Positions 11,350-55,085 of a DNA stretch of 64,000 nucleotides are shown here, piece after piece (within the stretch, counting starts at the first letter, position 1; the number at the start of each line of letters is the position of its first letter). This stretch comes from Spizellomyces punctatus DAOM BR117 (taxonomy: Eukaryota). Location: the NCBI GenBank assembly GCA_000182565.2, contig KQ257455.1, one strand, 5' to 3'. A model generated the notes under the pieces. That model had not been told where the DNA came from. It saw only the letters and a program-made list of their open reading frames with translations, and did not search any database. The position numbers and the translations under genes are program-made.

Positions 11350-11406
11350 TCCCCCCTTCGAAAAAGAAGGTTTGGCAACTCGTCTGTGAGTGTCTGAACC
11401 TCGCTT

Positions 11407-14400: not shown

Positions 14401-17400
14401 GAGTTTTCCGAGGCCCCAAATGAGGCATCTGGCCTCGAGTTCGACAGGGGGGGCCTTCTTTTCCGAGGTGGTGGTGCCTCGGGAATGGTAGCACAGCGGG
14501 TGTTTAGAAGCATCCGGCTGTAACTGTTCGAGCATGACATTAAACGCTGTGTAGGAAGCGTCACTGTGAAGGGTGTAGGGGAACCCTTTTCTGGGTGCCG
14601 CAAGCACTGGAGCTGTTGTCAGAGCCTGCTTGGTGGCTGCGAAGGCAGAGTTTCGGGAATCGGTCCATGAAACTTCACGCTTCACGATAAATCTGCGCAG
14701 ACCTTGGTCGGGGCGCTTGCGAGCAAGGCGTCCGACACAAAAGGGGTCAATGGGCAAGTCCGCCAACGATGATTGGCGTAGATTGACCACCGGTAGGTCT
14801 GAGGAGCTAGATTTCGGATGTTGCGAAACCTCAAATCAGGCTCCAGTGGCTGTGATTGTAGGGGCCACCGCCGTGTCGAGCATGGATGGTGAATTGAGCT
14901 TTTCAGCGCCTTTCTTTGGGTCAGCGCGACCCTTTTTAAGGTCTTGGTATTCGCGAACGCCCTCTTGGATAGCGTCTTGCAGGGGTCGGACGAGTTCCGT
15001 GTAGTGGGGGATGAATTGGGCGTGGAACCCTAGGAGACCCACGAAGGACCATAGGTCACCTATGAATTTGGGTCATGGCCAATCGACTATGGTTGCAACC
15101 TTGTCTGGATCGGTAGCGAGACCCTGAGAGGAGGCAACGAAACCGAGAGCCGTGAGCTGGTGAAAGAGCCATTGACACTTGTCAAGTCTTAGGGTGAGTT
15201 TGGCTCTGGAAAAGCGGTCGAGCCAGTCCGCGATGGCGTCTAGGGCTTCCGCGGCTGTCTCCGCTCGTGTGTGGATATCATTGACGAAGTTGTTGATATT
15301 TCACCATTTGGAGGGACCCAAGGTGTCATCCATCACCCGACAGAAGTGCGAAGGGGCAGTCTTGGGTCCGAAGGGCATAAAGAGTGGTTCGTAGATGCCG
15401 TCATGGAGTCTGATCGCGAGCCATTTGCGTACCGATGCATCGGTGATGGCGATTTGGTAAAATCCTTTGTTTGCGTCACCTCCCGATATGTATCGGAATG
15501 GGACTGCAATGATCCAGTTCAGGATGTCGAGCATGATGGGAAAGGGATATGGGTCCCAGGCCATGCAGTCGTTGGCTCGGCGATAGTCGAAGGCTACCTG
15601 CGGGGGTTTGTCTGTGTAGCGAATGATAACAGGATCGCTGGCGAAGGTTACTTTGGTGGTTCGTTTCCACCTCTGAAGCCCCATCATGGTGTCTTGCTCC
15701 ATCTCGAGGGCTGTCTGCTCCAACAGAGAGTACGACCGTGGCCTCGAAAGGGGTGGCGGAGCCGAGATAAATCGAGGCGCATAAGGAATCTTGGTGTAGT
15801 TCCCTATGAGATGACCCTCATAGCTGAAGGCTTGATGGAAGTGTCGTAGAATGTTGATTAGGGCCCAGACCATGGGTTTGGGTCGCTTGAGATCGACGTG
15901 GAAATGTTCCGCGTCTTTTAATTGGGCTTTGAAGGCCCCTGGAGCCCTCTCCGTAGAGTCGAGGTTCCATTTGTTCCGAAGTGTCTGCCATTCTTCTTTG
16001 GAAATGTTCTCTTCGGGGTCCGCAACTGAATTATGGGTTGCGGTGGACAGTTTGAGGCCTAACGGGGCCGTTGAGCTAGCAGCAGTGGCCTCAAGAGGGT
16101 TTTCGATGAGAAAAGTTTGGGCTGCCATGTGCGTCTGTCCCGTGATTAACATGGTTAATCTAGACTTCTGAGCTTTGGCTTTGGTCAGCCGTGGCATTGA
16201 CACATCCTTCATGAATTCACCCTGCTTGGTCTTGTATGGCATGCCGCACATGTGATCAGTGTCCAGCTCATCCATTATGGAGCAAGGGATAAGGATGTCC
16301 GGATTCTTGAGCGTCACCACGAAACTGGGTAACGGGGGTTCCTGAACCAAGGTTTGGAGTTTCAAATGTCCCAGAACGTCGTTGGCTAGGATGATGAGAG
16401 GTTTCCCATATGCAATGACTCGGAAATAGGCACGGAAAGTCAGGTATTCTCCTCTGTGGCCTCTGAGGGAAGTTTCGAGGCATACTGTCTTGGTAGATGA
16501 GATACGTCCACCAATGCCTTTGAAAGCCATCGTTTCTGCATCCTGCAAATCAGTTTCGGAGAACAGAAGGCCCTGGTACGTGTCGGAAACCAGAGACTCG
16601 CAGGCTCCTGTGTCTAGTACCACAGGTGCCCAGAGCTGAGCGATGACGGCTAGCGTCCAGCAAGGCTGTGTTTGGGTCTTGGTCTGGCTTTTGAGTACAT
16701 CGCCTAAATCTACCGAGTAGAAGGCATTGATGGAAGGCACCGCGACCTCGAAATGGGGCGCGATGTCATTAATTGTTGCTTCCATAGCCTTGATCGCACT
16801 CTCAAAGTGCTCTCTAGATTTGTTGTTTTGTGGTTTTGTTGTTTTATTCTGGCGAGCAACTTGTTTGATAGCCAGCATGACTATACGCGTCCGTTCGCTC
16901 TCTTCGTGTCTTTGGAGACGTGGATGGTCTTTAACGTGCAGAAATTTGGGGTTTCCGCGATGATAATAATAGTCTGAGCGAATGATATTGCCTGTCAGGA
17001 GAAATGCCACCAGTTGCAGGTTGGCGTAAGAATCAAAGATAACAGGATCTTCGGAGCTCCACATCAAGAATTTCTCACGCTCATCGAGCCTTATCCAGGC
17101 AAGGAGGATCAAATGAGGGGTACCGTCTTCTCGGACTTTTCACAGGATTCGATCCTTGTCAGCTTCAGCTGCAGCAGCGATGTAGAGGTGGTGGGAACTC
17201 CACGCGACTGCGTAGGGGTCGTTCCCGAGGTGCCCGGCGCCTCGCTTCAGTTCTTTGGCGAAGAAGCTGAGCACGCGGGGGTTGTTGCCCATCATCAGAG
17301 CCACTTGCGGGGTGCCCCAGATGATGGCTATGTTGTCCCAGACTTGGTCCCAGCCCTGCGTGGGCGTGCGGGGGTCCTCTTCCTTAGTCTCCGTGACCTC

Positions 17401-18963
17401 GGAAAGAGGTGCGGTCATCAAAATTGTTGATTCTGAGTGCTTGGGTGAATGAAAGAATCTGATGGTGTGGAATCCTTGATTAGCGGCGGCTGTCCTTTCC
17501 AGTTCTGAAGCCAAAAAAAGAGTCTCGGTGGTAGCGGACGTCGAGTCCAGCTCCACTATGTAAGACTTCTTGGACTCCTGTTTGGGTTTCCAACCTGCGG
17601 GCGTGGGTGCTCCATATGGTCCTTTCTTTCCATCTTCAGGATCTTTTCGGTTCGGGTTCTGCCAGCAGAAAACATTCCAATGCTTTTTCTGACAGAATTT
17701 GCAGGGTGCTGGTGGTTCCTTGTTGGGGTCCGGAACCATCTTTTGAGGACCGTCACAACCCTTTTCGGGGTTTCCGGTTTTATGTTGAGCCGTCTGCTTA
17801 GGGCCTTTGTCGGTTCCAGTCTTTTGTGACTTCTTCTGAGCTTCAGCAGCACCGCTGTAGCAAGGGTCTCATTTTCTGGTGTCATCAGAGCCGAAATAAA
17901 GGCGCAGGAAGTCTTTTAATTTGGTCAGGTTCATGACGTTACAGGATTTGACCATGATTTGGATGTCGCTGGGCAATTGTTCGACTATTAGGTCGAAATG
18001 CTGGTCAGTGGGACATTCTATGTTTGCCCGGTCGCCGTATGCGAGGCGCTGGAGATGAGTTTTGTGGTCAATGAACACGAGAAAGCTGCGAAATTCTTTG
18101 GGGTTCACGTGGCAGCGCACATATTCAGTTTTGCACTTGGACTCGGTTAGGGGATCTCGGAACTCTCGAAGCAGTTCTTCTTTCCACCTTTTCCAGGTCC
18201 ACGAGCGAGTTTCCTGGGCTTCCAGAGTGTAAAACCAAGCGTCGGCAGGGGTTTTCTCGGCTATCATGGCTGGTAGGAGCTGTACCATCCTGGCATCCAA
18301 CGTTGCGCTAACATTTTGAAGAAGTTGGACTTTGTTGAGCCATTCTTCAACGTCTTGGTTTCTTTTGCCCATAAACTCGGGTACGTCCTTTGCTTTCAAG
18401 GAATCGACCTTGGTGTCGCTGGCCCACAGGGCCGCTGGCACTTGGATTGGAGGCACCGGACCTGAAAAACTTGGTTCGGTATGCTCCCTTGGTGTGTCCG
18501 ATGTTTCCCACGGGGTTGTGGACCGTTCTCTTGTAGCTCGTGCTATGAGAGGTTGTTCAGGCAGCAGGCGATGTGCTAGGGCTTCTAAGGCTCGTGCGAG
18601 GCGCTCATCTGCCGCTGTCTGACGTTCGGAAAGCCTATGAAGCTGTTCCGTAAGATTTTGAGTTGCCAACTGCGTTGCAGCAGTCGAGCGGGCAATGTCT
18701 TCTTTTAACGCTGCCACTTCAGAGGCCATCGTGGCCAAGTTAGGGGCTTCCGGTTTGACGGAAGTGGTCCCTGAACGCCTTGGGCATGTTGCGGGAGGGA
18801 CTTCGACATCCTCTGCAGGACCCTGACTACGAGTCTGGATCACAGGTGAGCGGCCTCGCATTGGAGAGCATTCGACCGGCATCATTCTCGGTTTCATGAA
18901 GTCTGTTTCCGAAACGAGAGAAAAGGTTTCCGAGTAGCTACCTGAGCGGATCTCGGTTTGCAC
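11407..18963 (-). pseudogene. Gypsy-1 single-frame gag-pol polyprotein (Gag, CX2CX3HX4C knuckle, MTase-like insert, PR, RT, RH, INT, chromodomain, C-terminal extension)
   Basis: ORFs starting at 18963, 17739, 17112, 15042, 14790, 14268 and 12729 share one frame and are separated only by stops (8 TGA and 1 TAA counted). Motifs: VLDTGA (PR); MPFGPKTAPSHF and FVND (RT); LHSDAS and ITDHRAL (RH); GHFG, CEIC, TDFITKLP, PQGDGQSER (INT); FEVEAI..RWSGY..TWEP (chromodomain). Confidence 0.92.
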
Positions 18964-19020
18964 AAGAGTTTCGGTACAACCGAATAAGGTTTTCAGCTGA
19001 ATTTGAGAGGGGAAGGCAGT

Positions 19021-19039
19021 TCGTCGCGCTTCTCCACCA
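19021..19039 (-). promoter_or_regulatory. Primer binding site of Gypsy-1, probably tRNA-Ala
   Basis: TGGTGGAGAAG directly after the 5' LTR, complementary to a ...CUCCACCA tRNA 3' end. Confidence 0.6.
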
Positions 19040-19611
19040 TGTAACGGATTTTTTGTTGGTAGACTATGGTAAAGACAACTTGGGTCTCCTAGCAGGTTGT
19101 GTGGGTGTCCGTACTAGGAATCGTAGTCTCCAAATCCTTTCTTTGGGTGTCGGTAGTGACTTGAGGGCGAGAGGCAAGGAGAGTCAGTTAGTTGTGAACT
19201 GAGCAGGATTTAGAGGCTTCAGTGCGGGTGATCAGGCCGTTGAAGCGCTCTGTTAGGTTCCTGTTAACCTAGGATTGGGGTTGAGAAGCTAGTTGTGGGG
19301 ATTTTTTGTCGCTATGGCTTCTGGCTGCCGACTTATTTTATTGAATTCCTCTTTTTATACAAGAATATGCTACGGTAACGTCTACACTAGTTTCTGTAGC
19401 CTTCATTAGGGTGGCGGCATCCGATCTTCCCATCTCGGACCATTGCCATGATCGATCATGGCTGCGTAACGTATCCTTCACGCTGCGCTGGTGTAGCCCA
19501 GAACCGAGCTTGATCTTAGGGGTTTCGAAGCTTAGGTTACAATTGCGGAAACCTCAATTGTGGTCACCTGATGCCTTTGAGCGAACCAGTTTATCAGAGT
19601 CGTTCGCTACA
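19040..19611 (-). repeat. 5' LTR of Gypsy-1
   Basis: Same length as the left LTR; about 24 substitutions by manual alignment. Confidence 0.95.
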
Positions 19612-20244
19612 ACAGCATATTGTTACAATAGGCAGCAGGGACAAGAAGACTAGGAAGCCTTGGGGAAAACTTGGTTATTCTATTAGAGGGGGGTGTGGCA
19701 ACACTCCCTTTTTATAGACCAAAATGCCAAGGCTTCAGTTTTATCTCTAACCAATGAAAAGACTTCTAAACTAGTGAGTCACAATGTATCCTCCTTATCT
19801 TTGCAGTAAAAATTATTTTCTGCAGCTCAGGAATGTTGGGGAAGTCAAGAAATAGGTGTTATCCTACAACTAGACTGGATGCACCTGAGAGGTGGATAGC
19901 CATGTTAGAAGCTATGCCATCGCTAGAGAATGTCTCTGTGGACTTTGTGTCAAAAGAGCAGTGAAAGAGTTATATTACAGAAAGAAAAACGGGGTCCTAA
20001 ATATAGTACAGATCACATGATGACAACCTGACTTTGACCTCTAATTTTCGGGCGCATAAAGCAACTAACTAAGAAGGTGTTTTGACAAGCTTGTAGCGCG
20101 GATTCAGGGCTTTCCAGAACCATCTTGGTCTTGTTGATAAGTTAATAACTCGCTAAGTTATTCAAGTTACCGTCCCATGGCAACTTCAATGAAATCAATC
20201 AATTAATTCCAACACTTCCCCTCGCCCAAAATTCCATTCTATTC

Positions 20245-22842
20245 TTAGGCTCTTTTGTTTGTCACATCATCCAGTGATTGAACGCCAAGTTCTGCACAAC
20301 ACTGGGTGAACCTCGGTGCAGGAATGGCCTTGGTAAGAACATCTGCAGTCATCTGTTGAGTGGGGCATCTTCTAACTGAAATCTCGCCACTCTGGATGTG
20401 TTCCCTGAGGAAATGATAGCGTATATCAATATGTTTTGTCCGTTGCGAAATCAGGGTGTTCTTTGCCAGTTCCATCGCGCCATTGTTATCCATTTTGAGC
20501 ATGGTAGGGCGTTGTTTGACTTCCAAAAACCCGAGCTCTGCTAAGAGGTTTCTCATCCAAATAACCTCTCGTGCACAATCTGATGCCGCAATATACTCTG
20601 CCTCAACTGTGGAGAGTGCTGTGCATCTCTGCTTTGAAGATTTCCAAGCAATAGCGCCACCTGATAGCTTGAGAAGCCATCCTGAGGTTGACTTCCTATC
20701 TGAGAGGTCTCCACCCCAATCTGCATCGGAATAGGCTTCCAGATTGTAGCTGTTTTGCTGATAAACAAGCCCGTAGCTTGCTGTCTTTTGCAGGTACCGA
20801 AATATCCTCTTTACGCCCATCCAGTGCATGTTTCCAGGCACCTCACAGTGCCTAGCAAGTATCCCAACTGCTGTACTGATGTCAGGTCTAGAGGCAATTG
20901 CAGCAAACATCAAGCTGCCTATTGCACTGCAGTACTTCAATTTATCTACCATGGGTTGCCTTGACCCAAGAGCCTCAAATCAAACAGAGGTATCCAGTGG
21001 GGTTGACACTGGGTTTGAGTTTTCCATCTTGAGTCTTCTGAGCACTTCACCAATGTAATGTGCTTGATCCAGGGAAAGAATGCCATGCGGTTCATCTCTG
21101 ATTACCCTTAAACCCAAGATATGGTGGATAGGGCCAAGATCCTGCATCTTAAATTGCACTGACAATGTTGGTTTGACCCAATTCATGTCCTCTTTTGACT
21201 TGGTTGCAATAACCAGATCATCAACATAAACTGCCAGTATGATGTGCCATTTGTTTATGTTTGTGCACTCATCTTTCTCATGTGGTTTCACTTCCTGAAC
21301 CTCTTCCCCTTGCCAAATGTAAACACAAGGCTCGTGCACCAGTTGTTTAAAGCTGTTTTCGAGGAGGTAGGCATGCAGGGTATGGTTCCATAGCCTTCCA
21401 GCTTGCTTCAAACTGTAGAGACCCTTCTTCAACAAGCAAACAAACTTGTCTGGTGGGTGCTCTGTTGAAATTCCTAGGGGTTGCTCCACATACAGCTCTG
21501 AATCAACCTCGCCATTCAGAAATGCTGTTGCAACATCCATTTGATCCAATAAAAGCCCATGCTCTGCTGCCAGGGCAAAGATCAGTCGCAGAGCAGGGAA
21601 GGAGATGACGTGTGAAAAGGTCTCATCATAGTCCAATCCATGGATTTGACTGTACCCTTTGGCTACAAATCTTGCTTTGTGCCTTTCTACAGTGCTGTCA
21701 GTCTTCCACTTTGTTTTATAGACCCATTTGCTGCCAATTACAGGCCTTCAAGAGGGTCTGGGGACGATTTCCCACATCCCATTTTCAACCAGTGATGCAT
21801 ATTCAGCCTCCATGGCTTGCATCCAGGCTTCTTTCTGGGGTGATTGCAGCGTGCCATTAAGTGTTTTCAGGTCTTCATGGCCGAAACCTTCTTGCTGCAT
21901 CTCCAGATCTGTGGTGGTGGTGGTGGGGGGTCCTGAAGGCATTCCTAGGTGTGCATGGAAGGCGTCAACATCATTGTTTTCTCCTTCCAAATCACTGGGG
22001 AAATGCTGCTGTTCCCAGAGGTCAAGTGCCACAGTGTCCTTGACATGCTCCAATGGCTCCCAAGTACTCTCAGTTCTGGGGTAACCCTTCCATTTGACAA
22101 GGTAGTATGTCTCGTTGCCTTGTTTATCCTCAGCAAGGATCTCCTCCACAGGGAACTCCTGCTCTTCTTCTTCCAGCAGTGAACCCATTGGTTCAGAGCA
22201 TGCGTCAGATTGCCCTTTAACTGCCTCATCAAATGCCACATCCCTAGACTCCAAGATGGTGTCATTCTGGGGATTCCACAGTCGATAACATCGTGAATTT
22301 TGCCCATAACCAACCAGAATCAACTTTGCTGATGTGGGATCCAGTTTTCCTCATAGTTGCTTCGATATTTGCATGTAGGCGACACATCCAATTGCTCTCA
22401 GATGCTCTACATTAGGGTGCGCCCCTGTCAAGGCCTCAGAGGGGGTAATCTTCCTCTTCAGCAGCGCCTTGGTCGGGCTCAAATTCCTCAAATAATTGGC
22501 AGATTCCCAGACTTCTGCCCACAGCTTCTGGGGAAGGTTATTCTCGTGCAGAATAGACTGAAACATATCCTCCAGAGTCCTGTTCAATCTCTCAGCAGCT
22601 CCATTCTGCTGGGGAGTATAGTGCATCATAGTTTGGTGGGTGATGCCCTCAGATTTGAGGTAGGCATCAAACTGGTGGTTCATAAACTCACCACCGCCAT
22701 CAGTTCTGAATGCCTTGATTGTCCTTTCAGTCAGATTCTCGATCCAGGCCTTAAATTCCTTGAACTTTTCTAGGCACAACATTGCTGATTTCGAGTTGAG
22801 ATAGAAGCATTTGCTATATCTGCTTCCAAGATCCAAGAATGT
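20245..22842 (-). pseudogene. Copia-B pol 3' part: integrase core, chromodomain, RT, RNase H
   Basis: FRTDGGGEF and PQQNGAAER (INT); FPVEEIL..YLVKWKGY..STWEP (chromodomain); KARFVAKGY, QMDVATAFLNG, VYVDD (RT); YSDADWGG, TKHIDIRYHF (RH). One frame with three TGA stops. Confidence 0.92.
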
Positions 22843-23341
22843 TATTGAAACTTAGCGCTTGGAACACTGATTTCCCGTGTAGAAATCACTTCTGAAAGAC
22901 CTAGTAATGCCTGTGGCCGCTAGTAAGACTTCTGGGTGCAGTAACTTGTGGGATAACATGCTTGTATTAATCCAGAGACGTGCAAAAGCCCCCTTTATAT
23001 AACCCAGTACATTCTCCAGCCTCCCTCCGCCTTTGTTTACTGTTTACATGCTTCAGCCCACTTGTTTACATGCTCAGCCATGCTCAGCAGTGCTCAGCAG
23101 TGCTCAGCAGCTTCAGCCATGCCTTGGCAAACATTACCTGAAGATCTAGATCATCACAAACCTTCCAGACCTTCTAAGAGTGCTTACATGATGATTTACC
23201 CCTTTAAATCATTCCCACGCGCGTCTGTGATCATTCTGATTACTCTAAGTCCAATTCCCCACGTTGTAACTTATCCACATCAGATGTGAACTGTCTATGA
23301 CATCCCAGCATGATCTCACATGATTTATAGATCATACAGCG
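22843..23341 (-). repeat. Partial Copia-A LTR ending at an assembly gap (redundant copy of 23657-24155)
   Basis: 22628-23341 is repeated starting at 23442, across the N run. Confidence 0.8.
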
Positions 23342-23656
23342 NNNNNNNNNNNNNNNNNNNNNNNNNNNNNNNNNNNNNNNNNNNNNNNNNNNNNNNNNNN
23401 NNNNNNNNNNNNNNNNNNNNNNNNNNNNNNNNNNNNNNNNNATAGTTTGGTGGGTGATGCCCTCAGATTTGAGGTAGGCATCAAACTGGTGGTTCATAAA
23501 CTCACCACCGCCATCAGTTCTGAATGCCTTGATTGTCCTTTCAGTCAGATTCTCGATCCAGGCCTTAAATTCCTTGAACTTTTCTAGGCACAACATTGCT
23601 GATTTCGAGTTGAGATAGAAGCATTTGCTATATCTGCTTCCAAGATCCAAGAATGT

Positions 23657-26352
23657 TATTGAAACTTAGCGCTTGGAACACTGATTTCCCGTGTAGAAAT
23701 CACTTCTGAAAGACCTAGTAATGCCTGTGGCCGCTAGTAAGACTTCTGGGTGCAGTAACTTGTGGGATAACATGCTTGTATTAATCCAGAGACGTGCAAA
23801 AGCCCCCTTTATATAACCCAGTACATTCTCCAGCCTCCCTCCGCCTTTGTTTACTGTTTACATGCTTCAGCCCACTTGTTTACATGCTCAGCCATGCTCA
23901 GCAGTGCTCAGCAGTGCTCAGCAGCTTCAGCCATGCCTTGGCAAACATTACCTGAAGATCTAGATCATCACAAACCTTCCAGACCTTCTAAGAGTGCTTA
24001 CATGATGATTTACCCCTTTAAATCATTCCCACGCGCGTCTGTGATCATTCTGATTACTCTAAGTCCAATTCCCCACGTTGTAACTTAGCCAAATCAGATG
24101 TGAACTGTCTAATGACATCCCAGCATGATCTCACATGATTTATAGATCATACAGCGTGGTTTAAGCCTGAATCTCAACAAGTACTTTGCCCCACCATGAC
24201 TTGGTGTCTTCATGGGCCCACACACATCACTGTGAACCACCCCCAGCAGTAGAGCTGCTCTAGCTGCTTCTCCCTTTGGAAAGGGACGCCTGGTGATCTT
24301 TCCAATGGCACAGGCTTCGCATGGTGATGTTTCTGTGTGACTCTTGACCTCCAGACCGCTTCCCAGCTGGTTCCTAGCCAAGATTTTGATGCTGTTGACG
24401 TTCAGGTGTCCTAACCTGCGATGCCAGAGGTCCAAACTCATTCCAGAGGCTATGTTTGCATGTTCTCTTGCATGAAACATGTATAGACCGCCACCTAGAG
24501 TTCCCTGGATTGCTTCCTGACCATCTGAAGTCTTGATACAGCATCCCTTGCTGCCAAACTCAACTTTGGCACCATTTTCAGTGGCTCTTCTTACTGAAAA
24601 CAAGTTCTTTTCAAGCTTGGGAACAAACCACACGTCTCTGAGGGTACAGAATCGGTTTCTGCCTGTCTCAAGTGTGATCTGGCCCTTCCCTATTGCCTGA
24701 ACTGTTCTGTTGTCCGCCAGATGGACTTGAATTGGTGACATCTCCATGTAATTGGTCATCCAATCCTTCCTGTGTGACATGTGCTGTGAAGCACCCGAGT
24801 CCACAATCCACCAGACTGCTCCCTGAGAAGTTTTGGTGTCATCTCCTGACTGAGCAAAGAATAGGAACTCATTCTGAGTTGCCTGACTGGTGCTGGCTTG
24901 ATTGGCTTGTTGTTTGGTGTCCGCCAGAAACTTCCTGCAGTCCTTCTTGAAGTGACCCTTCTTGTTGCAATAGAAGCACTTCCCTGCTATCTTCTTGGTC
25001 CCACCATGCTTGCCAACCTTCTGCCCGCCATCCCTGCTGAAAAAGGCCTTCCCTTTGCTATCTCCTTCACCCCCAGCTTCCTTCCTGCGTGTTTCTTCAT
25101 GCAAAAGCCGTGATGTGAGGAATTCCAGTGTCAGAGAATCACTCCTGGCCTCCAAAGACACCACCAGCTGTTCATAACTCTCTGGTAGGCTGTAGAGTAG
25201 GGTGATGACTTGGTCTTCTTCACTGACTGGCGCCCCAATGGCCTCCAACTGCTGAGCCATTGTCCTGACCGTGTTTATGTGTCCCAACATGCCCCCAGCG
25301 CCGTCTTCCATCTTCAGAGTGAGAAATTTCCTCCTTAGATAGAGCCTACTGGCAATTCCCTTCCTTTGGTGGATGTCACTGAGCTTTAACCAGGCCTTCT
25401 TTGCAGTTACAGCGGTCTGTACATGCATGAGTTGGGCATCACTCAGTGACAGAGCAATTACTGCCATTGCCCGCTCATCCCTTCTCCTCCAATCCTTCTC
25501 AGAGGTTCCCTCCATGCTCTCATCTCCTTCAATCACACCCCACAGCCCCTTTTCCTTCAGCAACATCGTCATTTTGAGCTTCCAGAGGTGGTAGTTCATG
25601 CCGTTGAACTTTTCCATTGTGAGTTTGGTGTCCAAGTCCGTGTTTGACATGTCTGACCTGATTTGGTGAATGGATTTGCCGTTGGGGAAGAGGTGAAATC
25701 GTCCTGGTGTGGTAGGTGGTCCAAATATGAGGTTGGGAAGAGGATAGGTCCGTCAGGAAGATGGTGTGGCCGTCAGAAAAGAGATTTGAAGCAGGAAAAT
25801 ATCAGTGATAGCTATCAGGGCTCATAACCTATTGAAACTTAGCGCTTGGAACACTGATTTCCCGTGTAGAAATCACTTCTGAAAGACCTAGTAATGCCTG
25901 TGGCCGCTAGTAAGACTTCTGGGTGCAGTAACTTGTGGGATAACACGCTTGTATTAATCCAGAGACATGCAAAAGCCCCCTTTATATAACCCAGTACATT
26001 CTCCAGCCTCCCTCCGCCTTTGTTTACTGTTTACATGCTTCAGCCCACTTGTTTACATGCTCAGCCGTGCTCAGCAGTGCTCAGCAGTGCTCAGCAGCTT
26101 CAGCCATGCCTTGGCAAACATTACCTGAAGATCTAGATCATCACAAACCTTCCAGACCTTCTAAGAGTGCTTACATGATGATTTACCCCTTTAAATCATT
26201 CCCACGCGCGTCTGTGATCATTCTGATTACTCTAAGTCCAATTCCCCACGTTGTAACTTAGCCAGATCAGATGTGAACTGTCCAATGACATCCCAGCATG
26301 ATCTCACATGATTTATAGATCATACAGCGTGGTTTAAGCCTGAATCTCAACA
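23657..26352 (-). mobile_element. Internally truncated Ty1/Copia element (Copia-A1) inserted in the Copia-B integrase
   Basis: 523-bp LTRs at 23657-24179 and 25830-26352; AATGT TSD; PBS GGTTATGAGCCCTG; carries only gag, PR and the integrase N-terminus; no PPT. Confidence 0.92.
24109..25650 (-). CDS. Copia-A Gag (UBN2-type, CCHC knuckle), protease and GAG-pre-integrase; reads into the LTR
   Basis: FNGMNYHLW, LLYSLPESY, CFYCNKKGHFKKDC, WIVDSGASQHM, LWHRRLGH, CEAC, HSDVCGP. The last ~23 aa are LTR-derived. Confidence 0.9.
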   Translation of the reverse strand: MSNTDLDTKLTMEKFNGMNYHLWKLKMTMLLKEKGLWGVIEGDESMEGTSEKDWRRRDERAMAVIALSLSDAQLMHVQTAVTAKKAWLKLSDIHQRKGIASRLYLRRKFLTLKMEDGAGGMLGHINTVRTMAQQLEAIGAPVSEEDQVITLLYSLPESYEQLVVSLEARSDSLTLEFLTSRLLHEETRRKEAGGEGDSKGKAFFSRDGGQKVGKHGGTKKIAGKCFYCNKKGHFKKDCRKFLADTKQQANQASTSQATQNEFLFFAQSGDDTKTSQGAVWWIVDSGASQHMSHRKDWMTNYMEMSPIQVHLADNRTVQAIGKGQITLETGRNRFCTLRDVWFVPKLEKNLFSVRRATENGAKVEFGSKGCCIKTSDGQEAIQGTLGGGLYMFHAREHANIASGMSLDLWHRRLGHLNVNSIKILARNQLGSGLEVKSHTETSPCEACAIGKITRRPFPKGEAARAALLLGVVHSDVCGPMKTPSHGGAKYLLRFRLKPRCMIYKSCEIMLGCH

Positions 26353-28355
26353 AATGTGAGCACATATCTGGCTCCACCAAGCGATTTGGTGCGCATTGGT
26401 CCACATATGTTGCTACATATGACCTCCAAAAGCTGGTAACTCTTCTTGGGTGATTCAGGAAAGGGCAATCGCATTTGTTTACCCTTCTGACATCCATCAC
26501 AAAGCTGGTCTTCAACCACTGCTTTGCCATCAAAATTAAGACCATCAACCATACTGGTGAGCATCTTCAAATTGCCATAACTTAAATGGCCTAAGTGCCA
26601 ATGCCACAGCTTCAGTTTCCCACCATCCTGCTTCTCAGGGCGACCCAAACCTTGGTCTTCATGCTGTACTTCAGCTCCCATCACTTGGGAGTCACAGCTC
26701 ATGCTGCCAGGGTAAGCAGCAAGCTTGTAAAGCTCCCCTTCCCTGTTTCCTGCAGCAAACAATCGCTTATCTAGATGGAATTCCACTCCTCCAGACTGCG
26801 AAAAGGTGACATCCATGCCATTGTCAATAATGGCTCTGATAGACAGAAGATTGCAGCCCAACTCTGGGGCATACAGGATGTCCTGCAACACCACCTGCCG
26901 TCGATGTTGTTGTCCTGGAGTCTCCAACTCCAGGGGGATAGTGCCAATGCCTTCTGCATTGATAACTTCATCATTTGCAAGCACAATTTGTCATGAAATG
27001 GGCCTCAGATTGACAAAGAGTTCTTTGTGGGGACTCATATGCTGGCTACAGCCCGAATTGACTATAAATTGGACCTTCTTGCTGTAAGATTGCTGTGGTA
27101 GCTTCCTGCTAATCAAAGCAATGGCTTTTGCATTGTCCTGTTGACCATCCATTTGTTTATCCACAGCCAGCTTGGCTGTACTGTCTCCCTTGGCTGTTCC
27201 AGTGGTTTGTGACCCGCTCTTCTCCTTCATGGCACATTGGTATGCAAGATGGCCTGGGTTCCCACAGGTAAAACAGGTCTTCTGCATCGTCTGCTTCTTG
27301 CCATTGGTGCCATTGGTCACCTTTCCATAGCTCTGGGAGTTGTGGGACTGTTTCTGGTCGTCATATTGGTTCGTCTTAGCCACATTGACATGAGCTTTCG
27401 TCCCCTGCTTTGACTGGTTGAATACCCATGGGTTGTTGATGTATTCCAGTCTCAAAACAGCCAATTTGAGCATCTCCATGCTGTCCAAGTTCGATGGATT
27501 TGCCTCAATGCTGGCTCTCAAATCCTTGCACAATCCTTGCAGGAATAATACCTTCATCACCTCGTCATGCAGCACTGTTGTTTGCATGGATAGATTGGTG
27601 AACTGGTCAATAAACTCGACAATGGTGAGGTTCTCTGTGTCCTGAGAGATGTTGAAAAGTCTCTCCAGAGTTTTCCTCTGGTAATCTGGGGGTGTGAAGT
27701 GCTCAAGCAGAGCCTTCCACAGCTGACTCCAAGTCCTGATTCACCTTGGATCATCCTCCTCAACCTCTGTGAGGTGGTTCCCCCAAAAAACCTCTGCAGA
27801 ATCCTTCAGCTTCAACGTGGCAACCTTCAGTTCCAGTCTGGGGGGCAGTTCTGCTATGCTGAAGTACTCTTCAAGTTTGCGCACAAACTCTAGCAGCTTA
27901 TTAGTGTTGCTACCACCATGGTAGCGAGGGACTTCTTCCCTCAAAGTCTGTAGCACCTGCTTCTCTTCCTCATGAGAGAATGTGCTCCAAGAGCCTACTG
28001 ACTTGATATCTGCATCCCTATGCCTCAAGTTCTGCTCTGGTTTGAATGGCGCCTCCTGCACCATCATAGGAAGTGTTTCTGCGGCTCTAGCTGGCTGGGT
28101 TTGGGTCCTCTGTCCCAAAACTTCCTGAATATTGTTCAGAAGCTCTCTTCTGAACATCCTCATCTCGTCCTTGAACTCCAAAAAGGACTCCTGAGTGAGG
28201 TACTGGGGCTCGTCTTGAGCTTCCAGGTAACTACTGATGTCATCGTCCTGAGCTTGCTGAGCTTCCCTTCTGGTGTGCTCTTCAATCTCCTCAAACTGAC
28301 CAGAAACAGACATCTTTCTCTTTCCCTTTTGTGCTGATGTTCTGTCCAGGGGCAT
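26353..28355 (-). pseudogene. Copia-B 5' part: Ty3/Gypsy-like Gag, zinc knuckle, Copia protease, integrase N-terminus
   Basis: Three same-frame ORFs split by TGA at 27741 and 26991. Motifs: VPRYHG..FVRKLEEYF, TWSQLWKALLEHF, FLQGLCKDLR, CFTCGNPGHLAYQC, FIVNSGCSQHM, CNLLSI, LWHWHLGH, CDGC. Confidence 0.88.
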
Positions 28356-29509
28356 CCTTTGCTTCTGGTTTCAATACACTGCTCAGTAGTTTATATTCGC
28401 GTTGTTCTCAGCTGTCTGACAGGCAACCAGGGCTCATAACCTGTTGGGGAAGTTGAGAAATAGGTGTTATCCTACAACTAGACTGGATGCACCTGAGAGG
28501 TGGATAGCCATGTTAGAAGCTATGCCATCGCTAGAGAACGTCTCTGGGGACTTTGTGTCGAAAGAGCAGTGAAAGAGTTATATTACAGAAAGAAAAATGG
28601 GGTCCTAAATATAGTACAGATCACATGATGACAACCTGATTTCGACCTCTAAGTTTTGGGCGCATAAAGCAACTAACTACAAAAGTGTTTTGACAAGCTT
28701 GTAGCGCGGATTCAGGGCTTTCTAGAACCGTCTTGGTCTTGTCAATAAGTTAATAACTCGCTAAGTTATTCAAGTTACCGTCCCATGGCAACTTCAATGA
28801 AATCAATCAATTAATTCCAACAAGGAAGGGGAATTTGTTTCAGACACATGTCTCTGATGCACATTTTGCTTTCAGGAGCATGACTTGCTTAATTTAGGTA
28901 AATCAACCTTTAGACATGCCTTCTTACTAACACTTGTTTCAGAGATGTGCACCTGCCATTTTAAGACTAAAACCCTAACCCTAACCCTAAGTCCAAACTA
29001 CTATACTACTGATACTACTAACTGACCAACTAACTAAAGACAAAGTAACTAACAGAAGAATTCTGTTACACATATCTACCATCACTCACACACATTCAGT
29101 CCTGCATAATATGGGATAGTGGAACTATATTAGGGTATATGGAATTTCATTCTTGTAAATATATGCCAGCACCTTTGGTAATTCCTCCAGACTTATACCT
29201 ATTTATCTACCTCTCCAGGCTATAACCTTGCATTAATCCTCTATAATTGGGTAAAATAATTAATATATATTATAATTTACTTCAAGACCTGAATCATGCA
29301 GAAGCTGCAGGAACCACCATGGTAGTAGGTATTTTTTATAATAATAATAATCAGTACCTAGCATCAGATTGGGGAAAACTGGGCAAGCTTACAAGGCATA
29401 GAACATATATCCACATATTATACAGGCAAGAAGATCTATATTTATCTGCAAATGGCTTCTCAAGCTGAGACTCAAGGCAGATAGCTCTGTACAGCCGCAC
29501 AAAGCAACC

Positions 29510-29691: not shown

Positions 29692-30148
29692 TATTGAGAT
29701 TCTGGCTTAAACCACGCTGTATGATCTATAAATCATGTGAGATCATGCTGGGATGTCATTAGACAGTTCACATCTGATTTGGCTAAGTTACAACGTGGGG
29801 AATTGGACTTAGGGTAATCAGAACGATCACAGACACGTGTGGGAATGATTTAAAGGGGTAAATCATCATGTAAGCACTCTTAGAAGGTCTGGAAGGTTTG
29901 TGATGATCTAGATCTTCAGGTAATGTTTGCCAAGGCATGGCTGAAGCTGCTGAGCACTGCTGAGCATGGCTGAGCATGTAAACAAGTGGGCTGAAGCATG
30001 TAAACAGTAAACAAAGGCGGAGGGAGGCTGGAGAATGTACTGGGTTATAAAAAGGGGGCTTTTGAACATCTCTGGATTAATACAAGTGTGTTATCCCACA
30101 AGTTACTGCACCCAGAAGTCTTACTAGCGGCCACAGGCATTACTAGGC
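29692..30148 (+). repeat. Copia-A LTR in the opposite orientation, 3'-truncated by the LTR-C insertion
   Basis: Reverse complement of the 523-bp LTR-A, missing about the last 55 bp. Confidence 0.9.
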
Positions 30149-30637
30149 TGTAACAGGCTAGCAGGGACAAGAAGACAACAGAAAACTAGGGAAGACTTGG
30201 TTACTCTTGTTATTTTTCTTTGAGGGGCCTCAGAGAGGTCCTCTTTTTATAGACAAAGGGGCTGACAAATGCTATATCCTAACTACCCAATCAGATCTCA
30301 CCCACATCATCCTAAACTATTTGTCAGCCTATTGCACCATTTGCAACCAATCAGAACTCATACATGTCATCCTAAACTATTTGTCAGCCTATTGCACCAT
30401 TTATAGCCAATCACAAGTGAGACAAATCATCCTAAATACACTGTGCCACTTGATTGAAAGGGGCAGATGCCAGTGTGTCAGGATACTCATCTAATTTAGC
30501 CAGAAATGGCTAAATCTGCTTATTTATCTAATTCTGGTCAAATGAATGTTGACACCATCAGCAAAGTCATGTGCCCACTAGTTTGGAACCACATCTAACC
30601 AGTATAACCATAGCACTGACAGAAGAATTCTGTCACA
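30149..30637 (-). repeat. LTR family C (489 bp) with an internal 60-bp CCAAT-containing tandem repeat
   Basis: TGTAACA...TGTCACA ends; unit ccaatcag...tcatcctaaactatttgtcagcctattgcaccattt repeated about 2.5 times at ~30287-30436. Confidence 0.8.
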
Positions 30638-32465
30638 CTTAAGGAGGCTCACATGGAACACTGGGTGGATCTTCATGGTGCTGGGGAGCTCCAGGGTGTA
30701 ATTCTGAAATTCATCCTTGGCCTTGATTCTGTAAGGTCCAAGCCAGGGGTGAAGAAGTTTCTGGGCTGGCCTCTGGGCTTCTTCTTCTGGGGTGATACCT
30801 TCTCTAGATAGCCAAACTTTGGAGCCTAGGGGGTAGCTTGGGGCCTTGCTGAGAGACTTGTTGGCTTGCTGAACTTGTCTTTCTTGGGCCAGTATCATGT
30901 TATCCTTGGCTACTTGAAGCAGTTGCTGAATATACTGGTGGAAGTCTGTTGCTTCAAGATCATTGCTTTCTCCTGGTGGTGTTGCTGGGGTCCTGGGATG
31001 CTGGCCATTCTTCAAGTAGAATGGGGTAAAGCCTGTGGTTTCTGAGATACTGTTGTTGTAGGCAAACTCAGCAAAGGGGAGAAGATCTTCCCAATTCTTC
31101 ATGTTGTACTGCAGGAAAGCTCTGAGGTAAATCTTCAAAGTCTTGATGGTTCTCTCTGCCTGTCCATTGGTCTGCTGGTGCCTTGCAGTGGCTAGGAGGG
31201 TGTTGCAGCCTAAGAGTTGCATCAAGTTGGACCAGAATGAACTGGTGAACTTGGTGTCTATGTCTGATACAATCACTTCTGGGAGGCCATGGTGCTTGAA
31301 GATGTGCTTCAAGAAGAGCAGGGCCAGGTCCTTGGCTGAGGCTTTGGTGGTGGTAGGGATGAAGTGGCCTCTCTTTGACAATCTGTCAACAATGACAAAG
31401 ATGGCATTGTGATCAGAGGAAGTCATAGGTAGGTCAGGGATCAGGTCAATGGAGATCTGGCTCCATCTGGTCTTAGGTACTGGGAGGGGCTGCAGCAAGC
31501 CTGCTGGTGGTTGCTGACTAGGTTTGCTTCTCTGGCAGGAATCACAAGACTTGACATACTTCTTAATGTCCTTGTACATCCTTGGCCAGTAGTAATGCCT
31601 TGCTAGGGCATCATGGGTCTTGGTGATGCCAAAGTGTCCAGCATATTGAGTGTCAGGGGTTTCTTGGAGTAGGCTCAACCTTAGGTCTGGGTCACTAGGA
31701 ACAAAGATCCTGTCCTGGAAATAGAGTAACCCATCTTGATGGCTGAGGTACTTGAGCCTTTGTTGCTGGTCTTCTGGTCTCCTGGGGTCATCCAAAGCTT
31801 GGATGAGCTCTTGAAGTTCTGGGTCTTCTGTGGTACTGGTCTTCAATCTCTCTTGAAGGGTGCTGGTGGTGTGGGTCACAGCATTCAACTCTGCTGTCAC
31901 CAAGGCCTTGCACTTGATGCATCTTGGGGCCAGGTCTGGTCTTCTAGACAGGATGTCTGCCACTGTGTGGAGTCTTCCTGGGCCATAGCCAATCTCAAAG
32001 TCAAAAGATTGGAAATTCATGACCCATCTGGCTTGTCTTCTGGTCAAGAAGGGCTGGTTCTGTAGCCACTTGAGGGACTGGTGGTCTGAGATAACTTTGA
32101 AGGGGGTTCCTTCCAGGTAGGGCCTCCAAACTCTGAGGGCATCATGGATGGCTAACAGCTCTTGTTCTCTGGTGTCATATCTGGTCTCTGCTGGGGCCAT
32201 CTTCCTGGAGTGGTAGGCAACTGGTCTCATGCCTTTCCCATCATCCTGTCCAAGCCATGCACCAACTGCATAGCCTGAGGCATCAGGGAAGACAGTGGTA
32301 GGCAAGGCTGGGTCAAAGGGTCTGAGTACAGGGGCTTTGGTGACCATATCCTTCAGCTGCTGAAAAGCTTTCTCCTGAGGTTCAGACCAGGTCCAGGGCT
32401 TGTCATTTCTCAACAGGTCTGTCAATGGTGCAGCTTGCTCTGCCAGGTCCTTCAGAAAGCTATGG
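30638..32465 (-). mobile_element. Ty3/Gypsy pol fragment (RT tether, RNase H, integrase to the GPY/F motif)
   Basis: ORF 30578-32425: PDASGYAVG, EQELLAI, ISDHQSL, GHFG, CDSC, IDLIPDLP, QTNGQAER, WLGPY, HPVFHVSLLK. Confidence 0.92.
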
Positions 32466-35400
32466 GTTAGCTATCCAGTGCTGATGTCCGGGGTTGGAAA
32501 GGTACTGGCTAACTGATCCAACTGCTGCTGCTATGTCTGGTCTGGTGCCCAGCATTGCATAAATGAGACTTCCAGCAGCACTTCTGAAAGGAACCCCATT
32601 CATTTCTTGCTGTTCTGCCTCAGTTTGTGGTGACATGGCCTTGGTGAGCTTCTGGCCATTCTCGAGTGGTGTGGCAACTGGTTTGCTGTTACTCATATTG
32701 AATTTCTTCAATGTTTGACCGAGGTACCGCTGTTGGGAGAGCCAGATTGACCTGTTGGCTCTGTCCCTGACCACTTGGATGCCGAGAAAATGCTCTAACT
32801 GGCCCATATCAGCCATCTTGAACCGCTTCTTGAGTTCTTCTTTGAGTTTTAACAACTCCTGGTCATCCTTTGATGCCAGAATAAGGTCATCCACATACAG
32901 GATAAGGTGGATGCCCATCTTCTTGTTGATGTACAGCCCGTGGTCTGATTCACACCTTTCAAAGCCAAGTTCTTTGAGTTGCCCATCAATGACTTTGTTC
33001 CAGGCTCTTGGAGCTTGCTTTAACCCATACAAACTCTTCTTTAGCTTGCAGACAAGTCCATTTGCCGTGGTGAAGCCTTCTGGTTGGTCCATGTAGATGT
33101 CCTCCTCAATGGTCCCATTCAAGAATGCTGTCTTGACATCCATTTGGTGAATCTCCATGTCCTTCATGGCTGCTAGTGTCAGGACTGTCCTGATGGTTGC
33201 AAACTTGACTACTGGGGCAAATGTCTCCTTGTAGTCCAGTCCTTCAACTTGGGAGTATCCTTTGGCTACCAGTCTGGCCTTGTAGCGCTCTACAGAGCCA
33301 TCTGACTTGAGTTTCAGCTTGAAAACCCACTTGCAGCCAACTGTGGATCTTCCTGGTGGTAGTTTCACTAAGTCCCATGTCTGATTCTCCATCAGAGAGT
33401 CATATTCTGCTTTGACAGCCGCCTCCCACTGTTTGGCATCATGTCTGGTCCTAGCTTCAGCCAGAGTGCTGGGTTCTTCCTGTGGAACTTCCCCAATGGT
33501 GAAGGCAAAAGCCAAATTTGACTGAGTTGGCTTTGCAATCCACCACTCTCCCGGTGGTTTGTGAAATCTGGCACTCTTCCTGCTGAGTTCTGGCACTTCC
33601 TCAGCATCCTGGAAGTCGTCCCCATCATCTTCTGATGCTGAAGAGTTGTCTGGAGTGATGCTAGATGGTCTCTGAGTCTCTTGAACCATCCCTAGTTCTT
33701 CTTGGTCATCCAAGAACGAAGGCTCCCCTCCCAGAGGCATCTGTAGCTCTTGGTCTTGCTGTGGTACACTCTGCAGTCGCTGCTGAGTGCTCCACATCAC
33801 GTTTTCATCAAAGATGATGTCCCTTGACATGACAACTTGGTTCATTTCAGGTACCCACAATCTGTAGGCCTTACTCTGAGTGCTGTAGCCGACCATGACT
33901 GCCTTCTTGGCCTTCTCATCAAGTTTTGACCGCTTTTCCTTTGGAATATGAGTGTAGGCCATGCAGCCAAACACTCTGAGGTGCTGGAGATCTGGTTTAC
34001 CGCCTGTAAACTCTTGAAATGGTGTTGATTGGTTGCTGAGTGCTGCAGTGGGGCTCCTGTTCCTGAGATAGACCGCTGTCATGATTGCCTCACCCCAGAA
34101 CTTGTAGCTGAGTCCACTGTGGTGCAGCATGCACCTTCCCATTTCCACCAGCATCCTGTTCATCCTCTCAGCAACACCATTCTGCTCTGGTGTGTAGGGG
34201 GTGCTGAATTGCTGCTGAATTCCCTTCTGTTTGCAGAATTTCTTGAATTCTTCGCCCACATACTCTCCCCCATTGTCTGATCTGAGAGTTTTGATCTTCT
34301 GCCCCATGAAGTGTTCTGTTGTCCGCCAGATGGACTTGAATTGGTGACATCTCCATGTAATTGGTCATCCAATCCTTCCTGTGTGACATGTGCTGTGAAG
34401 CACCTGAGTCCACAATCCACCAGACTGCTCCCTGAGAAGTTTTGGTGTCATCTCCTGACTGAGCAAAGAATAGGAACTCATTCTGAGTTGCCTGACTGGT
34501 GCTGGCTTGATTGGCTTGTTGTTTGGTGTCCGCCAGAAACTTCCTGCAGTCCTTCTTGAAGTGACCCTTCTTGTTGCAATAGAAGCACTTCCCTGCTATC
34601 TTCTTGGTCCCACCATGCTTGCCAACCTTCTGCCCACCATCCCTGCTGAAAAAGGCCTTCCCTTTGCTATCTCCTTCACCCCCAGCTTCCTTCCTGCGTG
34701 TTTCTTCATGCAAAAGCCGTGATGTGAGGAATTCCAGTGTCAGAGAATCACTCCTGGCCTCCAAAGACACCACCAGCTGTTCATAACTCTCTGGTAGGCT
34801 GTAGAGTAGGGTGATGACTTGGTCTTCTTCACTGACTGGCGCCCCAATGGCCTCCAACTGCTGAGCCATTGTCCTGACCGTGTTTATATGTCCCAACATG
34901 CCCCCAGTGCCGTCTTCCATCTTCAGAGTGAGAAATTTCCTCCTTAGATAGAGCCTACTGGCAATTCCTTTCCTTTGGTGGATGTCACTGAGCTTTAACC
35001 AGGCCTCTTTTGCAGTTACAGCGGTCTGTACATGCATGACTTGGGCATCACTCAGTGACAGAGCAATTACAGCCATTGCCCGCTCATCCTCTCTCCTCCA
35101 ATCCTTCTCAGAGGTTCCCTCCATGCTCTGATCACCCTCAATCACACCCCACAGCCCCTTTTCCTTCAGCAACATCATCATTTTGAACTTCCAGAGGTGG
35201 TAGTTCATGCTGTTGAACTTTTCCATTGTGAGTTTGGTGTCCAAGTCCGTGTTTGACATGTCTGAGCTGATTTGGTGAGTGGATTTGCTGTTGGGGAAGA
35301 GGTGAAATCATCCTGGTGTGGTAGGTGGTCCAAATATCAGGTTGGGAAGAGGATAGGTCCATCAGGAAGATGGTGTGGCCATCACAAAAGAGATTTGAAG

Positions 35401-35951
35401 CAGGAAAAATATCAGTGATAGCTATCAGGGCTCATAACCTATTGAACTTAGCACTTGGAACACTGATTTCCTGTGTAGAAATCACTTCTGAAAGGCCTAG
35501 TAATGCCTGTGGCCGCTAGTAAGACTTCTGGGTGCAGTAACTTGTGGGATAACACGCTTGTATTAATCCAGAGATGTTCAAAAGCCCCCTTTATATAACC
35601 CAGTACATTCTCCAGCCTCCCTCCACCTTTGTTTACTGTTTACATGCTTCAGCCCACTTGTTTACATGCTCAGCCATGCTCAGCAGTGCTCAGCAGCTTC
35701 AGCCATGCCTTGGCAAACATTACCTGATGGTCTGGATCATCACAAACCTTCCAGACCTTCTAAGAGTGCTTACATGATGATTTACCCCTTTAAATCATTC
35801 CCACATGCGTCTGTGATCATTCTGATTACTCTAAGTCCAATTCCCCACGTTGTAACTTAGCCAGATCAGATGTGAACTGTCTAATGACATTTCAGCATGA
35901 TCTCACATGATTTATAGATCATACAGCGTGGTTTAAGCCTGAATCTCAACA
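32466..35951 (-). mobile_element. Copia-A2: 5' LTR (35440-35951), PBS, gag, internal deletion, then integrase-RT; 3' end lost
   Basis: Gag is nearly identical to 24109-25650 up to LADNRT, then jumps to (M)GQKIKTLRSDNGGEY. RT motifs QMDVKTAFLNG and LYVDD. Ends abruptly at PGHQHWIA against the Gypsy fragment. Confidence 0.9.
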
Positions 35952-36390
35952 CTGCTGCTGCTATGTCTGGTCTGGTGCCCAGCACTTCATAGGTGACACT
36001 TCCAACAGCACTTCTGAAATGGACCCCATTCATTTCTTGCTGTTCTGCCTCAGTTTGTGGTGACATCGCCTTGGTGAGCTTCTGGCTGTTCTCTTGTGGT
36101 GTGGCAACTGGTTTGCTGTTGCTCATATTGAACTTTTTCAATGTTTGACTGAGGTACCACTGTTGTGAGAGCCAGATTGACCTATTGACTCTGTCCCTGA
36201 CCACTTGAATGCTGAGAAAATGCTCTAACTGGCCCATATCAGCCATCTGGAACTGCTTCTTGAGTTCTTCTTTGAGTTTTAACAACTCCTGGTCATCCTT
36301 TGAGGCCAGAATAAGGTCGTCCACATACAGGATAAGGTGGATACCCATCTTCTTGTTGATGTACAGCCCGTGGTCTGATTCACACCTCTC
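35952..36390 (-). mobile_element. Third Copia-A RT fragment bounded by two LTRs
   Basis: Diverged copy of ~32523-32960 (GIHLILYVDD...GTRPDIAAAV). Confidence 0.88.
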
Positions 36391-54753: not shown

Positions 54754-55085
54754 GTTGAAAGTTTTCTTGTTATTGAAAGAAGGTACGGGAAATGAGATGA
54801 TGGTCTTACAAAAGGAACAAGCAGGAAGACCTCCTCACTTTATACTCCCGTCCATGTCTTGGCTTTTTTTTGCTGTCGTCATAAACCCGTCCTTCCAATC
54901 CGCTAGAACGGGCATTTCAAGGCAGAGGATAAACGGGGAATTCGGACCGCGTTGTGATTACGAGAGTCATGTATCCATATAAGGATATATAGTTGGTCCG
55001 AACACGTGTTGTGCCTGGCCTGTGTCGACTGCCAGTGGGCACGCAAGGGGAACGAATGCCACGTTCGTGTTCATCTTGGCGATTC

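Follow-up and report, generated by a model that had tools for sequence, protein, structure and literature searches.

A decayed Copia-type retrotransposon with a PF03732 capsid match and a predicted HP1-like chromodomain in Spizellomyces punctatus

Structure and domains of element A

The window analyzed here is a 64,000-nucleotide stretch of contig KQ257455.1 from the chytrid Spizellomyces punctatus DAOM BR117, and its main subject is one long terminal repeat (LTR) retrotransposon, element A, which spans positions 19834-28822 on the minus strand. The element is part of a 26-kb transposon cluster (approximately 10.7-36.4 kb), and a Gypsy chromovirus lies 220 bp away. Direct reading located the 5' LTR (TGTTGG...CCAACA) at 28442-28822 and the 3' LTR at 19834-20214; each is 381 bp long, and the two differ by 17 mismatches and no gaps (95.5% identity). 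They are bordered by identical copies of the target-site duplication (TSD) TTCCT, upstream at 28823-28827 and downstream at 19829-19833. A primer-binding site (PBS), GGTTATGAGCCC, directly adjoins the 5' LTR at 28430-28441, and a polypurine tract (PPT), gggcgaggggaag, lies just before the 3' LTR at 20215-20227. The termini are therefore of the Copia type, with TG...CA LTRs, a 5-bp TSD, a PBS after the 5' LTR and a PPT before the 3' LTR. The original prediction had named this LTR pair, TSD and PBS sequence, and all three were confirmed by direct reading. We take the PBS to be complementary to the anticodon arm of the initiator tRNA-Met (tRNAiMet), that is, to be of the internal type; Drosophila copia is primed by an internal tRNAiMet fragment. 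A tRNA gene scan of the 64-kb window found none.

Sequencing reads from the same organism were used for DNA joints and contigs (runs X21 and X1) and for RNA (run X19). A joint from 19830 to 28826, present in 17 reads of X21 and in an X1 contig, represents the site without element A. Element A was inserted as a single unit, because it has an LTR pair, a TSD and this empty site in the reads; the LTR pair and TSD likewise bear out the earlier claim that it had transposed in this form. The empty-site reads differ by one base in the middle of the TSD (19829-19833 / 28823-28827), and the empty site may therefore be an allele with a single-nucleotide polymorphism or a paralogous copy of the flank.

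Domains were assigned by a Pfam scan of element A as two read-through halves, with X in place of stops; all of them lie on the minus strand. The open reading frame (ORF) starts with an ATG at 28355-28353, and its N-terminus, MPLD..., lines up with the MPLE... start of P0009, a public protein relative. The Gag capsid domain (PF03732, Retrotrans_gag) was found at 27531-27827 with 36.8 bits (Pfam cut-off 24.1) and is interrupted by an in-frame TGA at 27743-27741. It is followed by a CCHC zinc knuckle at 27231-27281 (zf-CCHC, 23.9 bits) and a Copia-type protease (PR) region at 26817-27068 (Pol_BBD, 72.3 bits) with an in-frame TGA at 26993-26991. The protease active-site Asp is replaced by Asn (GTC AAT TCG GGC, 27062 onward) where relatives have DSGA. 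The N-terminal part of the integrase (INT) occupies 26358-26615 and ends in ...GGARYVL; gag_pre-integrs matched 26615-26475 with 37.9 bits, and the first catalytic Asp is again Asn (AGC AAC, 26417 onward) where relatives have SDxCGP. The C-terminal two thirds of the catalytic core, which continues with TFLDLGSRY..., lies at 22612-22842, where a partial rve match of 18.3 bits fell under the cut-off. The SH3-like C-terminal domain of the integrase is at 22219-22428 (SH3_retrovirus, 82.1 bits; in-frame TGA 22353-22351).

Between integrase and reverse transcriptase (RT) lies an HP1-like chromodomain at 22009-22158, EFPVEEIL...KWKGYPRTESTWEP, which matched Chromo (PF00385) with 45.6-48 bits (cut-off 25.1). 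The SH3-like domain and the chromodomain share one unbroken 200-aa ORF (22350-21751), after which RVT_2 follows in frame. The RVT_2 domain at 20995-21780 scored 209.2 bits and keeps YVDD, and a TGA at 21750-21748 interrupts it. The RNase H (RH) region at 20245-20982 has an in-frame TGA at 20982-20980 and ends in a natural TAA at 20247-20245; it had no match in the Pfam scan and is colinear to the C-terminus of P0009 and of a second public relative, P0001. The pol order in one frame is PR-INT-RT-RH with an RVT_2-type RT, as in Copia. RVT_1, Integrase_H2C2 and the order RT-RH-INT were not found in element A by Pfam; the same profiles matched the Gypsy elements of the window and a Gypsy polyprotein, P0002.

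Among solved structures, the best match of the chromodomain was the Drosophila HP1 chromodomain (entry 1kna, E 2.8e-9, 44-column alignment). Residues F, W and Y of element A align at what we take to be the aromatic cage positions of HP1 in 1kna. The excerpted text of PMC11541908 describes the chromodomain aromatic cage as three aromatics.

Pfam thus agreed with the claimed order of Gag, CCHC knuckle, Copia protease, Copia integrase, chromodomain and Copia RT in one frame, with RNase H placed by its colinearity with relatives, as well as with a Copia-type pol and a canonical chromodomain after the integrase. The interior had also been read as one element; here the domain order stood, but a nested second element, an 814-bp duplicate at an assembly gap and the five TGA stops had been missed. 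With the nested element, one copy of its TSD and the duplicate removed, element A is approximately 5.47 kb long and has approximately 1531 codons in one continuous frame.

Nested element B, assembly gap and decay

The nested element is a Copia element of 2696 bp, element B, at 23657-26352, also on the minus strand. It has its own 523-bp LTRs (5' 26352-25830, 3' 24179-23657; 99.0% identical, 5 mismatches), a PBS at 25829-25818 identical to that of element A, and the TSD ACATT, read directly upstream at 26353-26357, where read joints share the 5 bases, and downstream at 23652-23656. Excision of B together with one ACATT restores ...GGARYVL-T-FLDLGSRY... in frame in element A, and P0009 reads SRYVLTFLDHGSGY unbroken at the same point. 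Because the frame so restored is one that P0009 reads uninterrupted, B is a later insertion into the integrase gene of element A. A joint from 22837 to 26353 was present in 12 reads of X21 and in an 875-nt X1 contig, which has 6 differences in its 633-nt part; it represents a copy or allele of element A with an integrase uninterrupted by B.

Element B has an intact 547-aa ORF (25752-24112) consisting of a PF14223 Copia Gag, a CCHC knuckle, Pol_BBD and the integrase N-terminus. At 24179, 195 loose read ends carry the full-length B integrase onward as KYFVTFIDD, and in two further sets (127 and 114 ends) a PPT-like run precedes the 523-bp repeat R, the B-family LTR. The nested copy is therefore internally deleted and has no integrase core, RT, RNase H or PPT. 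Its integrase runs from ...GGAKY straight into the first base of the 3' LTR (24179/24180), with 1 nt of microhomology. The junction is approximately 10 nt from the site homologous to the entry point of B in the integrase of element A, a near-coincidence. Our best guess for the deletion is an earlier same-orientation insertion of R into the B integrase, followed by LTR-LTR recombination. Splicing was rejected as a source, as the missing segment can neither begin with GT nor finish with AG.

Three copies of R lie inside the interval of element A and two more in the window, and the read depth of the B family is approximately 8-10 times that of A. An abundant family-B variant, in which the 5' LTR and PBS are joined directly to mid-Gag, was inferred because a joint from 25023 to 25828 (segment 25024-25827 missing) is present in 94 X21 reads and in an X1 contig. 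Family B has a second copy at 32463-35951, whose corresponding linker contains no chromodomain. This copy is missing the part between the C-terminus of the protease and the middle of the integrase, and a B-like RVT_2 fragment (35884-36399) directly adjoins it. Elements A and B are 36% identical across INT-RT.

The segment at 22843-23651, which has no assigned strand, is a probable assembly artefact made up of a repeat of the element A integrase core (23442-23651), a 100-N scaffold gap (23342-23441) and a partial B LTR (22843-23341). The gap is flanked by a 715-bp duplicate, 22628-23341 being 99.6% identical to 23442-24156. The duplicate probably represents unmerged contig ends, because the other 100-N gap of the window (37881-37980) has the same pattern: the 300 bp at 37112-37411 on one side of it recur exactly on the other at 37981-38280. 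Between 28822 and 26353 there is no gap, and independent contigs cover the sequence.

All 5 in-frame stops of element A are TGA. At these positions relatives have R, R, R, G/E and H, so that 3 of the 5 correspond to Arg, and both the protease and the first integrase D-to-N codons are G-to-A changes after a C (C-G context). Counting the neighboring Gypsy chromovirus, the two old elements (11410-19113 and 19834-28822) have 13 TGA among 13 in-frame stops (Gypsy 8, A 5). Among LTR mismatches, 11 of 17 in element A are CpG-context transitions, as are all 24 of 24 in the Gypsy neighbor. The observed/expected CpG ratio was 0.23-0.29 in element A compared to 0.75-1.03 in host ORFs, and 0.17-0.29 in the Copia families. 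Judged from these changes, this copy of element A is dead, and its stops and D-to-N changes fit deamination of methylated CpG. The all-TGA stops, the CpG depletion and the dominance of CpG transitions in LTR divergence together suggest that this genome methylates its transposons at CpG. Use of TGA as a sense codon, which would double the long ORFs, was rejected on the grounds that the two longest host ORFs (1219 and 926 aa) contain no TGA, that the TGA positions of element A match no single residue and that CpG decay explains CGA-to-TGA.

RNA reads of X19 that matched numbered 340, from approximately 6% of the run, and fell mostly on LTRs. Any transcripts stem from other copies, because the RNA reads differ from the present copy of element A, for example in 48 of 48 reads at 28744.

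Gag, relatives and surroundings

The Gag of element A had been called Gypsy-like, and by sequence this was upheld. PF03732 was the scoring profile, and the Copia-type Gag profiles PF14223, PF14227 and PF14244 gave no match even at E<=1, so that Gag does not fit Copia Gag profiles best; a match to one of these is common in Ty1/Copia elements without defining them. Ty3_capsid reached 22.1 bits, under its cut-off of 29.1. In a sequence search of solved structures dArc2 was matched (E 0.00099); capsids of copia and Ty1 were absent from the results. These matches suggest a Metaviridae-like Gag. The structural model of Gag (pLDDT 88.6) has a two-lobed capsid (CA) fold, and its top Foldseek matches were dArc1 and dArc2 (20% identity, E 1.6e-4). 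In pairwise comparison the highest score was that of the PEG10 C-terminal domain (CTD; Z 13.9, 86 residues), and the model aligned with the Drosophila copia capsid 8vvw (Z 11.3, 155 residues, root-mean-square deviation 9.1), the Ty3 capsid 6r24 (Z 10.9, 152 residues, root-mean-square deviation 6.4) and the Ty1 CA-CTD (Z 10.1, 83 residues). By its modeled fold, Gag thus matches copia and Ty3 capsids equally, and the Gypsy-like assignment does not stand as proof of recombination. A metagenome scan with P0009 returned a short fragment and an ordinary PF14223 Copia element without chromodomain, L001, whose Gag gave a sub-threshold PF03732 match on the same stretch. Because of that second match, the PF03732 and PF14223 profiles describe related proteins, and a PF03732-like Gag may have been retained in the Copia lineage rather than captured.

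These results bear on the possibility of an ancient modular exchange at the root of the lineage, in which a Copia element gained a Metaviridae-type Gag and, separately, a chromovirus chromodomain. We consider it unlikely. The above-threshold PF03732 match with no Copia Gag profile at E<=1 and the dArc proteins as best Gag matches in both searches speak for such an exchange, as do Ty3_capsid matches above cut-off in three relatives (P0139, 63.5 bits; P0100, 39.8; P0091, 38.2) and the chromodomain of the Gypsy polyprotein P0002, which is 61% identical to that of element A over 28% of the query. However, the Gag fold ties copia, Ty3 and Ty1 capsids, and the double match of L001 means that a PF03732-like Gag could be ancestral. 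In addition, Gag is at the 5' end and the chromodomain in mid-element, which requires two separate captures, and HP1 matches the chromodomain about as well, making a host gene an equally good donor. An exchange between superfamilies is unproven and, if real, ancient.

We performed an exhaustive profile search with the 200-aa SH3-chromodomain ORF, which gave 2912 proteins at E<=0.001, and analyzed the best 150 of the 2912. In phmmer comparisons of these 150, 19 had both a Copia mark and a chromodomain. Pfam was run on 34 of the 150, chosen for a match spanning both parts or for high rank, and Chromo with a Copia mark was found in 17 of the 34. PF03732 Gag together with Copia pol was present in 7, of which 4 also had Pfam Chromo (P0009, P0038, P0050 and P0100). 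P0054 has a whole Copia pol with Chromo and no Gag match, and none of the 3 relatives with PF14223 Gag had Chromo. The others included 1 Gypsy-type protein, 5 chromodomain proteins without retroelement domains and 1 without a match. P0009, a single 1457-aa ORF, is colinear with element A from Gag to RNase H, with 34% identity in a 557-aa alignment from Gag through PR to the integrase N-terminus and 51% in one of 857 aa from the integrase core through the chromodomain to RT-RH. In P0001, where rve, SH3, Chromo and RVT_2 were all matched, 861 aa align to element A at 63% identity. Element A grouped with P0001 (98/98) and then P0009 (89/90) in a 16-row tree of RT-RH, whose deeper branches are long and mostly unresolved. 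Searches with the Gag piece of element A against longer proteins found no homologue, and residues 100-375 of P0009 found only P0009 itself; both used a weak word index and make no statement on rarity.

Further elements with the same architecture, which the original prediction had proposed looking for, thus exist: P0009 is colinear, and four relatives have both Pfam PF03732 and Chromo. Since divergent public proteins repeat the whole architecture, it is an old lineage trait common to many public relatives and not a recombination event in this genome, and the idea of a one-off hybrid fell away. A recent recombinant of the resident Gypsy chromovirus and a Copia element is accordingly very improbable: the chromovirus (approximately 10778-19611) lies 220 bp from element A, but its Gag has no significant similarity to that of element A (E 0.11), the two chromodomains are 30% identical, and the same layout from Gag to RNase H is found in P0009 (34-51% identity) and other divergent proteins. 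Least credible is an artefact, in which mis-assembly across repeats or a nested Gypsy fragment imitates one element; a scaffold gap with duplicated flanks does lie at the locus and the high-copy LTR R occurs five times in the window, but the gap-free stretch from 28822 to 26353 is independently covered, 12 reads and a contig run across the integrase with no B in between, the TSD pairs fit, and P0009, a protein of other origin, repeats this order in a single ORF.

Chromodomain-guided integration is a hallmark of Gypsy chromoviruses, and the chromodomain reportedly steers their integration into heterochromatin (a finding attributed to Gao and colleagues in 2008). Element A resembles Ty3/Gypsy chromoviruses such as MAGGY and Tf1 in its integrase C-terminal chromodomain, PF03732/Ty3-capsid-like Gag and CCHC knuckle, and by analogy tethering to H3K9-methylated chromatin would be expected. 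In contrast to them, it has PR-INT-RT-RH with RVT_2 rather than RT-RH-INT with RVT_1, gag_pre-integrs rather than Integrase_H2C2, SH3_retrovirus rather than SH3_Tf2-1, and a PBS of the internal tRNAiMet type. With ordinary Ty1/Copia elements (Drosophila copia, family B) it shares domain order, RVT_2, Pol_BBD, a 5-bp TSD and TG..CA LTRs, whereas these have PF14223 Gag and no chromodomain, B being without both PF03732 and Chromo.

A close described system is that of the diatom CoDi-A Ty1/Copia elements, whose integrase has a C-terminal chromodomain (Llorens et al. 2009, PMC2774666). As excerpted, that paper states that the chromodomain was not seen in other Copia elements and proposes a capture independent of Gypsy chromoviruses; a 2024 Ectocarpus paper (PMC11541908) cites the finding in its excerpted text. 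Compared by description only, element A is like CoDi-A in its Copia pol order and a chromodomain directly after the integrase. In the excerpts of the literature searched, a Copia chromodomain appeared only in PMC2774666 and in its citation in PMC11541908, and the excerpts of fungal and diatom surveys (PMC3248453, PMC5445492, PMC2806351, 10.1101/2025.10.24.684338 and PMC6875170) contained no mention of one. The suggestion that the system was possibly undescribed was thus overtaken by the excerpted account of CoDi-A, and element A joins an already known, little-described kind of chromodomain-bearing Copia element. Arthropod CopiaMBD is likewise a Copia lineage with a chromatin-reader domain and a proposed bias to silenced DNA (de Mendoza et al. 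2019, PMC6673714); according to the excerpts, it differs from element A in having a methyl-CpG binding domain rather than a chromodomain and in being confined to arthropods.

The neighboring Gypsy chromovirus (10778-19611) has 572-bp LTRs that are 95.8% identical, and matched RT_RNaseH, Integrase_H2C2, rve and Chromo; the ORF of its Gag region had no Pfam match. On the other side of element A the transposon cluster goes on at 29694-36399, with a reverse-oriented R LTR at 29694-30147 and a Gypsy RNaseH-integrase fragment at 30581-32470. Other ORFs of the window encode a CFAP74-like protein, a Pex24p-family protein and a desaturase with a C-terminal cytochrome b5, a set in keeping with a flagellated, fungus-like eukaryote. 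The desaturase-cytochrome b5 frame (53327-54769) is split by in-frame stops and would be a 481-aa ORF if three TGAs were read through; it could be a pseudogene, contain an intron or reflect an error. A 165-bp unit is present in at least 3 tandem copies, 99% identical, at 44341-44970, inside a 448-aa ORF (43942-45285).

Interpretation and biological meaning

Taken together, these data make it probable, at roughly 85%, that element A is a decayed Ty1/Copia copy from a lineage that combines a PF03732 capsid, Copia PR-INT-RT-RH, a PBS of the internal-tRNAiMet type and an HP1-like chromodomain at the integrase C-terminus. Element A integrated once as a unit, was later hit by the much more abundant Copia family B, and has been inactivated by C-to-T changes at CpG sites. 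In a functional copy, protease processing would presumably leave the chromodomain as a C-terminal tail of the integrase, the arrangement known from Gypsy chromoviruses. With its aromatic cage intact (F/W/Y), the chromodomain may then bind methylated H3K9 and may tether the pre-integration complex to heterochromatin, with new copies landing among silenced transposons. Such heterochromatin targeting is suggested, by analogy, by the HP1-like cage and by one insertion inside a transposon cluster.

Several points weigh against this reading. One insertion in a transposon cluster does not prove a site preference, histone binding by the chromodomain of element A is predicted from its likeness to known readers, and chromatin immunoprecipitation runs with an undefined antibody carry no information on chromatin state. 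Among the relatives with PF03732 Gag and Copia pol, three (P0073, P0091 and P0139) have a chromodomain too divergent for Pfam at E 1e-5. The relatives were also found with a chromodomain-containing query, which biases the joint occurrence of PF03732 Gag and chromodomain. Finally, the chromodomain set may not be one clade, because a 100/100 branch in the RT-RH tree leaves the chromodomain-bearing P0019 on the same side as the three PF14223 elements.

A broader proposal is that element A and its relatives form an unrecognized, old and widespread chromodomain-Copia clade outside diatoms, which arose by takeover of a Metaviridae-type capsid and a histone-reading chromodomain and converged on the heterochromatin strategy of chromoviruses. 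This proposal is doubtful. If it were true, module exchange between superfamilies would be a source of new retrotransposon lineages.

For the combined Copia architecture itself, element A and at least 19 divergent public relatives indicate that the Copia version of chromodomain-bearing elements is probably a lineage of considerable size that has a Gag type of its own. Should the chromodomain act as it does in chromoviruses, this lineage would allow the choice of safe landing sites by retrotransposons to be tested independently. Since transposons of the host appear to be marked by CpG methylation, S. punctatus could serve to study targeting, silencing and decay side by side.

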